Source of the DNA: Escherichia coli
Lineage (GTDB): Bacteria > Pseudomonadota > Gammaproteobacteria > Enterobacterales > Enterobacteriaceae
Length of the DNA: 64,000 nucleotides
NCBI RefSeq assembly: GCF_045037415.1
Contig: NZ_CP173438.1
Direction: 5' to 3' (one strand)
Positions 9,995-61,319 of this stretch are shown here, one piece after another. Within the stretch, counting starts at the first letter, position 1. Every line of letters starts with the position of its first letter. The translations under genes and the position numbers were made by a program. The notes under the pieces are model-generated. The model worked only from the letters and a program-made list of their open reading frames with translations. It made no database searches and had not been told where the DNA came from.

Positions 9995-10115
9995 GCTGCC
10001 GGATGATCCTGCCGATGGTTCTGGGCTGGGGACTTGTAGGCCTGATAAGACGCGTCAAGCGTCGCATCAGGCGCTGAATGTCGGATGTGGCGTGCAGCCT
10101 ACAAATCACACCAAA
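9995..10115. repeat. REP/BIME palindromic elements between convergent ygcQ and ygcP
   Basis: GCCGGATG and TAGGCCTGATAAGACGCG...CGCATCAGGC motifs typical of E. coli REP units. Confidence 0.7.
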
Positions 10116-16526: not shown

Positions 16527-16585
16527 TCAGCCCGGTCTTGTAGGCCTGATAAGACGTGTGAGCGTTGCATCAGGCAAGGCAAACA
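16527..16585. repeat. REP element between cysI and cysH
   Basis: TAGGCCTGATAAGACG...GCATCAGGC palindromic unit. Confidence 0.7.
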
Positions 16586-17399: not shown

Positions 17400-17800
17400 T
17401 TCCGGCATTTAAAGGTGAACATCGCAGGGAAAATTAACAGGTATAGAATGGCATTGGGTGCTTGAGGCTGTCTGGCGTTAAGCATTCGCAAGGTTCCAGA
17501 TGGACAAAAGCCCCAGGCGATATTTCTATCAACCTGAGGCTCGCGTTCGAACGTAGCAATTCGGATGTTAGTCTCTTCTTTGCAGGGAGGCAAGACATGC
17601 TGACAAAATATGCCCTTGTGGCAATCATCGTACTGTGTTGTACAGTACTGGGATTCACGTTGATGGTAGGCGACTCGTTGTGTGAGTTGAGTATCAGAGA
17701 ACGTGGTATGGAGTTTAAGGCAGTTCTCGCTTACGAATCGAAGAAGTAGCCACCACGCGGGGTAAAACCCCGCGTACTGAATTGTGATGGTTTGGCCTCC
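17400..17800 (+). other. hok/sok-type type I toxin-antitoxin locus (antisense Sok RNA expected on the minus strand over the hok leader; not mapped)
   Basis: Contains a Hok-family ORF with an in-frame upstream mok-like extension and a 3' GC hairpin (CGCGGGG-TAAAA-CCCCGCG, 17756-17774). Confidence 0.55.
17597..17749 (+). CDS. hokX: Hok/Gef-family membrane toxin (50 aa)
   Basis: [50 protein letters not shown]: one transmembrane helix plus conserved SLCE...AYES Hok signature; symbol assigned because the hok homologue next to cysH is, as I recall, the hokX/sokX locus. Confidence 0.65.
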
Positions 17801-57559: not shown

Positions 57560-57711
57560 AAATCTTACAGAACTGTTCTGGTATCAAAGGAATTCCCGGA
57601 AATATTCGTAGAATACGAAGCGGGCAGTATCGCCGACCTGTGACTGCCGGATGCGACGCTGTCGTGTCCGGCTGGGCGGGTTACGCAATTCATGATGGCG
57701 GGAATAACTCA

Positions 57712-59964
57712 ATGGCAAAAAACACATCTTGCGGTGTCCAACTGCGTATTCGTGGCAAAGTGCAGGGCGTCGGTTTTCGTCCGTTTGTCTGGCAACTGGC
57801 ACAGCAATTAAATCTTCACGGCGATGTCTGTAATGACGGCGATGGCGTAGAAGTCCGGCTGCTGGAAGAGCCGGAAACCTTTCTTGTTCAATTGCATCAG
57901 CATTGTCCGCCGCTGGCGCGTATTGATAGCGTCGAGCGTGAGCCGTTTATCTGGTCACAACTGCCCACCGAGTTCACTATCCGCCAGAGCACAGGCGGCG
58001 CTATGAATACGCAAATAGTTCCCGATGCCGCGACTTGCCCTGCTTGCCTTGCCGAAATGAATACCCCGGGCGAGCGGCGTTATCGTTATCCGTTTATCAA
58101 CTGTACCCACTGTGGCCCGCGTTTCACCATTATTCGCGCCATGCCTTACGACCGCCCGTTTACCGTGATGGCGGCGTTTCCGCTGTGTCCGGCTTGTGAC
58201 AAAGAGTACTGTGACCCGCTCGATCGTCGCTTCCACGCCCAGCCGGTGGCCTGCCCGGAGTGTGGCCCCCATCTTGAATGGGTAAGTCATGGTGAACATG
58301 CAGAACAAGAGGCGGCATTACAGGCAGCTATCGCACAGTTAAAAATGGGCAACATTGTCGCCATCAAAGGGATTGGCGGATTTCATCTTGCCTGCGATGC
58401 ACGTAACAGTAACGCGGTGGCGACACTTCGGGCGCGCAAACATCGCCCGGCGAAACCGCTGGCGGTCATGTTGCCAGTGGCTGACGGTTTACCAGACGCT
58501 GCGCGCCAGTTGCTTACCACGCCCGCCGCGCCGATTGTGCTGGTGGATAAAAAATATGTACCTGAGCTTTGTGATGATATCGCCCCTGGCCTTAACGAAG
58601 TCGGGGTAATGTTGCCTGCGAACCCGCTCCAGCATTTGCTGTTACAGGAACTGCAATGCCCGCTGGTGATGACCTCCGGCAACCTGAGCGGTAAACCACC
58701 GGCTATCAGCAACGAACAGGCGCTGGCGGATTTGCAGGGCATTGCCGACGGATTCTTGATACATAACCGCGACATCGTGCAGCGGATGGATGATTCGGTG
58801 GTGCGCGAAAGCGGCGAAATGCTGCGCCGTTCGCGGGGGTATGTGCCGGATGCGCTGGCTTTGCCTCCGGGCTTTAAAAATGTTCCGCCTGTGCTGTGTC
58901 TCGGCGCGGATCTGAAAAATACCTTCTGCCTGGTGCGCGGCGAACAAGCGGTGTTGAGTCAGCATCTGGGCGATTTAAGTGACGATGGCATCCAGATGCA
59001 GTGGCGCGAAGCGTTACGCCTGATGCAAAACATCTACGATTTCACTCCGCAATACGTTGTGCATGACGCGCATCCGGGCTATGTCTCCAGCCAGTGGGCG
59101 CGCGAAATGAATCTGCCGACGCAAACGGTGCTGCATCATCATGCTCACGCAGCGGCATGTCTGGCAGAACATCACTGGCCGCTGGATGGCGGAGATGTCA
59201 TTGCGTTGACACTCGACGGTATTGGTATGGGGGAGAACGGCGCTTTGTGGGGGGGAGAGTGCCTGCGGGTGAACTATCGTGAATGCGAGCACCTGGGCGG
59301 CTTGCCTGCAGTGGCGCTTGCTGGTGGCGATCTTGCCGCAAAGCAGCCGTGGCGAAACCTGCTGACGCAGTGCTTGCGTTTTGTGCCGGAGTGGCAGAGT
59401 TATCCCGAAACGGTAAGTGTGCAACAGCAAAACTGGAGCGTGCTGGCGCGGGCCATTGAGCGTGGAATCAATGCACCACTGGCGTCATCGTGTGGGCGGT
59501 TGTTCGATGCCGTAGCGGCGGCGCTGGGCTGTGCGCCAGCCACGTTAAGTTATGAAGGTGAAGCGGCTTGTGCTCTGGAGGCGCTGGCGACTTCGTGCCA
59601 CGGCGTGACGCATCCGGTGACGATGCCGCTGGTGGATAATCAACTGGATCTCGCCACCTTCTGGCAGCAGTGGCTGAACTGGCAGGCTCCGGTTAATCAA
59701 CGTGCGTGGGCGTTTCATGATGCGCTGGCGCAGGGGGGGGCCGCGTTGATGCGTGAGCAGGCCACGATGCGTGGTATCACTACGCTGGTATTTAGCGGCG
59801 GGGTTATTCATAACCGTTTGCTGCGTGCACGTCTGGCGCATTATCTCGCTGATTTCACATTGCTCTTTCCACAGAGTTTACCTGCGGGCGATGGCGGGTT
59901 GTCTCTGGGGCAGGGGGTTATTGCTGCGGCGCGTTGGTTAGCGGGTGAAGTCCAGAACGGATAA
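57712..59964 (+). CDS. hypF: carbamoyltransferase HypF (hydrogenase maturation)
   Basis: 750 aa from the ATG at 57712; acylphosphatase domain, two CxxC-x18-CxxC zinc fingers, YrdC and Kae1-like domains. Confidence 0.95.
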
Positions 59965-59967
59965 AGC

Positions 59968-60185
59968 GTGTTGCATTTGGACACCATTGCCGGATGCGGC
60001 GTGAACGCCTTATCCGGCCTACATATTCATCCCCGCAGGTCGGATAAGACGCGCTAGCGTCGCATCCGACATTTTGGGACAGTGCAATGCGACATAAACG
60101 TATTATGTGATCAACACATGCGTTCCCTGTAGGTCGGATAAGACGCGTCAGCGCCGCATCCGACATTTGGGGCACTGTAGCTCGC
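59968..60185. repeat. cluster of REP/BIME elements between convergent hypF and norW
   Basis: At least three units carrying GCCGGATGCGGCGTGAACGCCTTATCCGGCCTACA and GTAGGTCGGATAAGACGCG...CGCATCCGACA motifs. Confidence 0.8.
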
Positions 60186-61319
60186 CTACATCGACAACGT
60201 TTTCAACAATCCAAATGCCTCTTTCATCCGATCCTCACTGACCACAAAGGCGCGAAGCTGGTCAGCATCGTCAACACCGCGCGCCACCATTCCCTGGCGT
60301 TCGGTATTAATTTGCCAGCGTAAATCCTGACGCTGGGGTTCGCCTGCCAGATGCAGCGGTAATTCCGGCGTTTTGATTTTCACCAGCATCGCCGGGAGTT
60401 TCAGCGGCGTGTTATTGCCGAGAAGATTTTTTGCCAGCACCATCGCGCTAAGTTGAATCGGCTGGAGGAACGGCAATACCTGACCGTTAATTTCCGCGCA
60501 ATCGCCCAGCGCATAAATATCGGCATTACTGGTTTGCAGATAACTATCGACGCAAACGCCGCGATTAATCGTCAGCCCGGCGCGTCGTGCCAGGGCGGTT
60601 TCCGGGCGCAGTCCGGTGGCGGCAATTACCGCATCCACTTCGATGCAGCGCTGGCGGTCCAGCGTTGCCAGAATGCCAGAATCTGTTTTTTCCAGTCCTT
60701 GCAACTGAGATTTTAACAGCAGATGAACGCCCATCTCCGTCAACCGATGCTGCAAGCGGCTGCTGACTTCCGGTGGCATTAACGACGCCAGAATACTGGC
60801 AGCGTTGTCGATTAGCGTGACCGCTTTGCCTGCCCGACAAAAATCCATCGCCAGTTCGCTACCAATCAAACCACCGCCAACAATCAACACGCGTCGGGCA
60901 TCCCGCAGTTGTGTTTCACAGGCGCGATACTCTTGCTGACTATTTAACGTCAGCATTAACTCACGCCCGGGCACTGGCGGGACAAAGGCGCTGGCACCGG
61001 TTGCCAGCACTAACTTGTCGTATTGCCACTGATTATTCTGACTTTTCACCACATGGGCTTCGGCATCGATATCCGTTACCCAGGTGTGCGGAAACAGGCG
61101 CAGATTAAACTGCTCGGCAAATTCACCTGCCGTCTGGCGGGTAAGGTCGTCGGCACGTTGCCCCTGACTGATAACATGGCTGAGGTCAGGTTTGTTGTAC
61201 TCATCCATGCTGTCGGCGGCAATCAGGGTTAATGGAATACAGGCGTCCTGTTTGCGAATATTTTTCACCAGTTGGCGGGCGGCGAAGCCCGAACCAATGA
61301 TCACAATGCCGTTGCTCAT
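60186..61319 (-). CDS. norW: NADH:flavorubredoxin reductase
   Basis: 377-aa ORF; FAD/NAD(P)-binding GSGFAA and GGGLIG motifs; overlaps the norV stop. Confidence 0.95.

Follow-up and report, generated by a model that had tools for sequence, protein, structure and literature searches.

The spacer between the convergent genes hypF and norW, in the 64,000-nucleotide stretch of Escherichia coli DNA analysed here (the window; contig NZ_CP173438.1 of assembly GCF_045037415.1), is read as a BIME-2 array of two units, built from E. coli REP elements, which lies in the 3' space common to the hydN-hypF and norVW transcription units and would have hairpin roles there. We put the probability of this reading at roughly 0.85. 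The array is an ordinary one, and it is already known both in kind and at this very locus, where K-12 carries the candidate small RNA C0664.

The spacer is 221 bp long (59965-60185) and is bordered by hypF (57712-59964, + strand), which encodes the carbamoyltransferase HypF and ends with a TAA stop codon at 59962-59964, and by norW (60186-61319, - strand), which encodes the NADH:flavorubredoxin reductase and has its stop codon at 60186-60188. A segment of 621 nt that includes the spacer recurs at 100% identity in strain SK1144 and in other strains, where the flanks are annotated as hypF and norW. The extent of hypF itself follows the 100% identical stretch of SK1144, which carries a hypF gene of 2253 nt; the program-made open reading frame over the gene begins further upstream, at 57640. 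The REP cluster sits wholly between the two stop codons, with its first unit (REP1) 24 nt past the hypF stop and its last intact unit (REP3) 21 nt from the norW stop. An earlier note, made from the letters of the DNA, had proposed a REP/BIME cluster between convergent hypF and norW, and this proposal is borne out by repeat finding, Rfam alignment and gene annotation. No REP or ncRNA feature is annotated at the hypF-norW spacer in the RefSeq record of K-12 (NC_000913.3). Two further open reading frames cross the array, one of 85 codons at 59918-60175 (- strand) and one of 44 codons at 60107-60241 (+ strand). Both consist of repeat sequence, and the RefSeq genomes inspected have no annotated CDS at either place; therefore they should not be called genes.

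The array contains three intact REP units and a decayed one. REP1 (59989-60022, + strand) is a Y-type unit that consists of GCCGGATGCGGCGTGAACGCCTTATCCGGC and a CTAC tail (60019-60022). It was recovered as an inverted repeat and as a pattern match with 0 mismatches, and it differs at 1 of 34 positions from the Y unit common to K-12, E. albertii and E. whittamii at this site. A tail-to-tail linker of 12 nt, ATATTCATCCCC (60023-60034), connects it to REP2 (60035-60070, listed on the + strand), a Z2-type unit that is oriented opposite to REP1 and consists of GCAG followed by GTCGGATAAGACGCGCTAGCGTCGCATCCGAC. GCAG is the foot tetranucleotide of REP2 in the allele of the window, and the foot is GTAG in K-12, M8, E. 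albertii and others. Following the head-side linker ATTTTGGGACA (60071-60081), there is a decayed, locus-specific Y-like unit, Y' (60082-60115, + strand), which reads GTGCAATGCGACATAAACGTATTATGTGATCAAC and is oriented as REP1. It is in register with Y at 13 mismatches out of 34, and Tandem Repeats Finder gives the same register in a four-unit allele. Y' is confined to the hypF-norW locus, with 2103 places in 1958 genomes and 0 in K-12-type genomes. The second tail-to-tail linker, ACATGCGTTCCCT (13 nt, 60116-60128), leads to REP3 (60129-60164, listed on the + strand), a Z2-type unit with GTAG (60129-60132) and GTCGGATAAGACGCGTCAGCGCCGCATCCGAC, which is oriented as REP2.

The order of the array is Y(+) Z2(-) Y'(+, decayed) Z2(-). 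In a mismatch-tolerant scan the intact units match Y or Z2 with 1-2 mismatches, and repeat finding recovers REP2 and REP3 as direct repeats with a spacing of 94 nt, sharing 49 nt at 88% identity. The array can be divided into two tandem units of about 94 nt, each composed of Y or Y', a linker of 12-13 nt, Z2 and a further linker, and the two are identical at 69 of 96 positions. Three intact units in 221 bp agree with the earlier estimate of at least three REP-like palindromic units in about 220 bp. The alternating orientation that was claimed along with it holds if the decayed Y' is counted (+ - + -) and fails for the intact units alone (+ - -). Tandem Repeats Finder did not detect the array in the window, because its two units are just 72% identical, Y and Y' having diverged. 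The tandem structure was recognised only via the four-unit allele of strain B4103-1 (L006), in which the same program reports a period of 97 with 4.0 copies and a 90% match.

The intact units have the hallmarks of REPs in their folding. REP1 forms a hairpin of -21 kcal/mol on both strands, REP2 one of -21 kcal/mol, and REP3 one of -16 kcal/mol on the + strand and -20 kcal/mol on the - strand; the stems of all three consist of 7 plus 4-5 bp split by a bulge, which makes them the imperfect palindromes, some 35-40 nt long, expected of REPs. Y' folds at about -5 kcal/mol, short of a REP hairpin. When the folding of a 251-nt region was compared with that of shuffled sequences, it gave z = -7.2 on the + strand and -6.2 on the - strand, and 0 of 200 shuffles folded as well. 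The GTAG/CTAC foot of REPs is present in REP1 (as CTAC) and in REP3 (as GTAG). Furthermore, a 621-nt query that contains the spacer matched at least 7-51 places per E. coli genome, with a median of at least 38 among the matches listed, which identifies the REP units as members of a dispersed, high-copy, extragenic repeat family. All three intact units also align with REPs, the check by which the earlier note proposed that its motifs be judged. A search for the REP-tail pattern over the whole window returned 5 matches when 1.46 were expected, which is weakly above chance, as 4 of 100 shuffles reached 5. Since the pattern search is weak by itself, the case is built on clustering, full-length alignment and folding.

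BIME-2 elements are defined by the alternation of Y and Z2, short tail-to-tail linkers and tandem repetition; the S linker is a mark of BIME-2, and the long, IHF-binding L linker is a mark of BIME-1 (PMC3333891). The array in the spacer alternates Y and Z2 when the decayed Y' is counted, its linkers of 12 and 13 nt are S linkers by length, and its tandem copies vary in number by strain, with 1-5 units at the locus. In Rfam the nearest model is naRNA4 (RF02564), which is a Y+Z2 REP pair itself. Its Y half aligns with REP1 and its Z2 half with REP2 and REP3 (46.8, 44.4 and 36.8 bits; E = 1e-6, 4e-6 and 2e-4). The best of these scores is below the gathering score of 59.5, and the locus gave no match in a scan of the window at the gathering threshold.

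Further features were noticed elsewhere in the window. Two more REP sites are found at 10036-10105 and 16540-16575. The former begins with a Z2-like unit, GTAGGCCTGATAAGACGCGTCAAGCGTCGCATCAGGC (10036-10072), after which comes a truncated partner with CCTAC at its end. The latter is a single Z2-like unit. An apparent ribosome-binding site and ATG follow about 20 nt downstream, which places the unit between tandem genes. In addition, positions 17456-17612 (+ strand) match the sok antitoxin RNA (RF01794) at E = 1e-22, scoring 104.3 bits where the gathering score is 59. This is the only family above the gathering threshold in the whole window, and the match indicates a putative hok/sok-type toxin-antitoxin locus.

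The number of units differs widely between strains. When 5,426 complete E. coli genomes were searched with a query made of the two gene flanks, the locus was recovered in 5,425, of which 5,397 have it in one piece and 28 (0.5%) have it split. A single unit of the K-12 type, in a spacer of 127 bp, accounts for about 2,756 genomes (51%) by subtraction, an estimate that agrees with evenly spaced samples of the ranking (28 of 60 and 20 of 39 rows); K-12, O157:H7 and strain 042 belong to this type. At least one Y', and hence two or more units, is present in 1,957 genomes (36.1%), with spacers of 221-225 bp and longer, and 684 genomes (12.6%) have a REP-free spacer of 77 bp. The Y' unit is at least 95% identical to the version in the window in 1,056 genomes, among them a record labelled O25b:H4-ST131, and 80-90% identical to it in 902 genomes, O111 and O103 strains included. 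Longer arrays comprise three units in 327 bp (L089; three units are also found in L009 and L011) and four units in 419 bp (L006), and the maximum is reached by one genome with four Y' copies, that is, five units. The earlier note expected the unit number to vary among strains, and across the genomes it takes values of 0, 1, 2, 3, 4 and up to 5. With the 621-nt query, about 70 genomes had a coverage below 80%, and these do not represent the REP-free allele. The flank-only query identified 28 of them as truly split, and the remaining low-coverage genomes are suspected to be artefacts of the REP-rich query.

The REP-free allele has a perfect 9-bp GC hairpin, CCCTCGCCC-TTT-GGGCGAGGG (L005 449-565, from E. 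coli HCM-24C-3, and L008 2634-2712). Its spacer appears unrelated to the array, with a possible remnant of the 5' arm of Y, GGCGGATGTGGCGTAAC, and the outgroups examined yielded no source for it. In some genomes a stretch of the hairpin region has a second match elsewhere, and the C-terminus of HypF differs in REP-free genomes, being four residues shorter (ending in ...AAARILHTA or ...AAARILHAA). One of the two examples, the 7.7-kb contig DXKH01000030.1 (L008), comes from a metagenome-assembled genome labelled 'Citrobacter sp.' (HRGM_Genome_0066). It combines the E. coli REP-free spacer with a NorW that is 99% identical to that of the window, and the NorW proteins of true Citrobacter are 87-90% identical to the latter. 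By its sequence, the contig looks like E. coli DNA in a bin labelled Citrobacter.

The alleles show that the array gains and loses units through recombination between its direct repeats of about 94-98 nt. The K-12 allele has exactly one unit fewer than the long alleles. As it carries no Y', the long form cannot come from the short one by simple duplication, and a deletion that leads from long to short through recombination between the two Z2 copies would be the simpler direction. Another product was found in strain FDAARGOS_1286 (L007 672-799), where the spacer is 128 bp long and Y and Y' are joined in a chimera, GCCGGATGCGGCGTAAACG/TATTATGTGATCAAC. This single-unit allele is a Y x Y' recombinant of an array of the window's type, which is left with a chimeric half-REP in which the Y hairpin is no longer possible. 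The K-12-type single-unit allele and this chimera are the products of the recombination hotspot that had been predicted for the cluster.

An insertion hotspot had been predicted as well, and it has a counterpart in strain DCE7 from pig lung, the one locus inspected among the 28 that are split. The spacer of DCE7 is filled by a 4.1-kb nest of insertion sequences (L088 895-4852), which contains an IS1397-family element, another IS3-family element and the IS110-like ISEc21. On the left the nest joins the array within the loop of Y (...GCGGCGTAAA/TGAACTG...), on the right within that of a Z2 unit (...CAGTTCA/GCCAGCGTCGCATCCGAC...), and the sequence between the two loops is absent. In the reference list of PMC3333891, IS1397 figures as the classic insertion sequence that targets the palindromic units of BIMEs. 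The REP loops are thus shown here to serve as targets for REP-specific insertion sequences, in events that are rare (at most 0.5% of genomes).

The array is older than the species. Outgroups were collected by a NorW scan with one genome per species, from which the neighbouring spacer was taken in many Enterobacteriaceae. Three units are present in the spacer of E. albertii (320 bp) and in that of Escherichia sp. E1V33 (323 bp), and a single one in that of E. whittamii (127 bp). The canonical outer Y is present in all three relatives, and the multi-unit ones share the same kind of decayed internal Y'. The occurrence of the array and of the decayed unit in E. albertii and Escherichia sp. E1V33 means that both predate E. 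coli. Across these taxa the mean pairwise difference is 2.2% for the outer Y and 5.9% for Z2, as compared with 13.4% for Y'. The intact REPs are thus kept constant, by selection or by concerted evolution, whereas Y' drifts.

Beyond Escherichia, the corresponding site holds a tail-to-tail REP pair particular to the taxon in S. enterica subsp. arizonae and in several species of Citrobacter. Further Citrobacter species carry a GC hairpin bordered by A/T runs (AAAAAGCCCCGGGACTGGCGGGGC...), and this can be read as a putative intrinsic terminator for norW-sense transcripts. Given the REP pairs or terminator in other genera and the hairpin of the REP-free allele, some 3' hairpin is always present and a REP is not required. 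Species-specific REP pairs or the GC hairpin occupy the norW-hypF spacers inspected in Citrobacter spp. and in S. enterica subsp. arizonae and diarizonae (L012-L028, L051); the spacers from other genera include, flanked by A/T runs, the GC hairpin AAAAAGCCCCGGGACTGGCGGGGCAAGAAAAA and additional small hairpins. The hypF frame continues into the REP in two Citrobacter genomes (L020, L051), with the resulting C-terminus ...RDMPDGDA.

REP clusters in general stabilise upstream mRNA, as the earlier note stated. By analogy with other REPs, the most likely role of the array would be to provide both operons with 3'-UTR hairpins that hold off exonucleases and reduce read-through. The array occupies the 3' untranslated space common to the convergent hydN-hypF and norVW units, and in the RNA of either strand its REPs are predicted to fold into hairpins of about -20 kcal/mol. 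Such hairpins block 3'-to-5' exonucleases elsewhere and may do so here, and they may also partly stop read-through in both directions, in part in a Rho-dependent manner. Each operon would thereby gain a protected 3' end, and little antisense transcription would enter its neighbour. At the level of DNA, the Y unit of BIME-2 would be a preferred gyrase site, suited to a spot where the positive supercoils of converging operons meet.

Work on other loci defines what can be expected from such hairpins. REPs have been described as dual elements, partial Rho-dependent terminators and stabilisers at once, with an effect that is called context-dependent; across the genome, convergent gene pairs with REPs have the higher expression, and terminal REPs have no general genome-wide effect on half-life (bioRxiv 10.64898/2026.03.23.713779). 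In the spacer there is no terminator-like site within 59965-60185. On the + strand, Z2 is followed just by ATTTTGGG or ATTTGGGG, and since no REP of the spacer is followed by a run of at least five T, none is a canonical intrinsic terminator. Terminator-like matches at 59769 and 59902 were rejected, as they lie within hypF and not in the spacer. With no intrinsic terminator, no general half-life effect and 12.6% of genomes without REPs, any effect is likely to be modest and context-dependent. Similarly, the REP-free genomes and the range from 1 to 5 units imply that a REP-specific function at this locus is dispensable or just modulatory. Any change of GTAG abolishes binding and cleavage by TnpA-Ec, the E. 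coli REP transposase, in vitro (PMC8266576), and REP2, with GCAG instead of GTAG, is therefore predicted to be inert to the REP transposase.

In the literature examined, no locus-specific expression, half-life, 3'-end or gyrase data were found. The supplements of PMC6379681 and bioRxiv 10.64898/2026.03.23.713779 hold nothing specific on gyrase cleavage or termination at norW/hypF, and those of the latter, when searched for REP, terminator or Rho tables, returned just differential-expression rows for hypF. PMC3009722 mentions both hypF and norW; its REP is upstream of hypF and not in the hypF-norW spacer.

The allele states of the lineages are no REP, one unit, two units (of the window/ST131 type or of the O111/O103 type) and up to five. 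We consider it improbable that this lineage-structured polymorphism of 0 to 5 units acts as a non-coding 'dial' on the 3'-end stability or read-through of norVW or hydN-hypF mRNA. If it did, nitric oxide detoxification (norVW) and hydrogenase maturation (hydN-hypF) could differ heritably in expression without any change in promoter or coding sequence.

A serious rival, which we regard as possible, holds that the array is selfish or neutral repeat DNA without a host function here, kept by RAYT (TnpA-REP), gene conversion and unequal recombination, and that its RNA hairpins are incidental. Polymorphism in both presence and copy number, from 0 to 5 units, is consistent with this, as is the decay of Y' and its fast drift (13.4%, against 2.2% for Y and 5.9% for Z2). 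The absence of a biofilm, motility or fimbriae phenotype upon overexpression of C0664 (PMC4606813 Table 1) and the lack of a genome-wide half-life effect of terminal REPs point in the same direction. The outer Y and Z2, however, are nearly invariant from E. albertii to E. coli, which argues against this rival, although concerted evolution could also explain it. Some 3' hairpin is moreover found at the site in all relatives examined as well as in the REP-free allele, and the higher expression of REP-containing convergent pairs is likewise at odds with purely incidental hairpins.

It is rather doubtful that the main role is exerted at the DNA level, by a strong, transcription-independent gyrase site that is cleaved in Y and relieves positive supercoils or organises the chromosome; a role in RNA would be compatible with it. 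Gyrase cleaves BIME-2 elements, which are enriched for its cleavage sites, in y more than in z2, and the signal rises with rifampicin, but just a subset of BIME-2 elements is cleaved (PMC6379681) and the supplements of that study make no mention of this locus. The conservation of the canonical Y, the highest at the locus, and the position between convergent genes speak for such a site, yet 12.6% of strains have no REP here and the units added in long arrays bring the decayed Y' and not a good Y.

C0664, the name of which goes back to an original array paper, is represented in the window by a homologue at 59970-60081 (- strand), a norW-sense RNA that covers Z2 and Y. The insert sequence of the C0664 clone was taken from the supplement of PMC4606813 and aligns to NC_000913.3 at 2835055-2835167, within the 127-bp norW-hypF spacer of K-12 (2835046-2835172) and on the norW-sense strand. 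The alignment of the cloned sequence with the window is a local one of 112 nt, which marks the two as orthologous in sequence. Coordinates for C0664 were not found in RepRanger, PsRNA or the robustness paper. It is described as one of three small RNAs in EcoCyc known to contain REPs, of unknown function (PMC12306157).

The simplest reading is that C0664 would be a REP-protected 3' remnant of the norVW mRNA. That the spacer is an independent, trans-acting sRNA gene with its own promoter and targets is very unlikely. The place of the REP-containing C0664 in the EcoCyc list and the mapping of its clone to the spacer speak for such a gene, but a consensus scan of 59700-60500, blind to weak or non-sigma-70 promoters, found no sigma-70-like promoter on either strand. 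The RNA consists almost wholly of the Z2 and Y hairpins, its sequence is missing from 12.6% of genomes and duplicated in 36%, sub-threshold naRNA4 matches are its only link to an Rfam family, and its overexpression altered none of the phenotypes scored, as mentioned above. It is unlikely in the extreme that the spacer encodes a naRNA4-like nucleoid-associated RNA that condenses the chromosome with HU, for although RF02564 is the sole Rfam family to match it, all three scores are below the gathering score and reflect just the common Y/Z2 REP sequence, and REP325/naRNA4 itself gives no measurable nucleoid compaction (bioRxiv 10.64898/2026.03.23.713779).

The reading of the spacer as a BIME-2 array with 3' hairpin roles has limited consequences. 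Variation between strains in the copy number of BIME-2 at a given locus has already been described in general (PMC3333891), and what the census, the comparison with outgroups and the IS example add to this is a matter of bookkeeping. The annotation of the spacer should name it a BIME-2 REP array and note that the K-12 candidate sRNA C0664 maps there, and there is little importance beyond this. The locus can nevertheless serve as a worked example of a REP array that behaves as a variable-number tandem repeat of about 97 bp and is older than the species, with lineage-specific alleles, a REP-free replacement and an IS insertion into REP loops. It might also find use in typing, or as a natural series of alleles in which the effect of REP number on the 3' ends of convergent operons could be followed.

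Among known systems, the array most resembles BIME-2 itself, with which it shares the alternation of Y and Z2, tail-to-tail linkers of 12-13 nt, tandem organisation, an extragenic position at the 3' ends of transcription units and a unit number that varies between strains. It differs in that its internal Y has decayed to the locus-specific Y' without a strong hairpin, and in that REP2 has GCAG and not GTAG. REP325/naRNA4 (RF02564), a BIME-2 with 12 hairpins in the yjdMN operon, is built from the same Y and Z2 blocks, and it reportedly combines a partial Rho-dependent terminator with a stabiliser of upstream mRNA (bioRxiv 10.64898/2026.03.23.713779). Unlike REP325, the hypF-norW array lies between convergent genes and not in an operon, has 3 intact hairpins and not 12, and scores below the gathering score of the family. 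As in IS1397 target sites, the element ends in DCE7 are found in the Y and Z2 loops of the array, whereas the array of the window carries no insertion sequence and the locus is split in 28 of 5,425 genomes. Finally, C0664 of K-12 has the same locus and strand and covers the same Z2 and Y, and the allele of the window is set apart from it by several linker substitutions and by an extra [Y'-Z2] unit that lies upstream in the norW-sense RNA.
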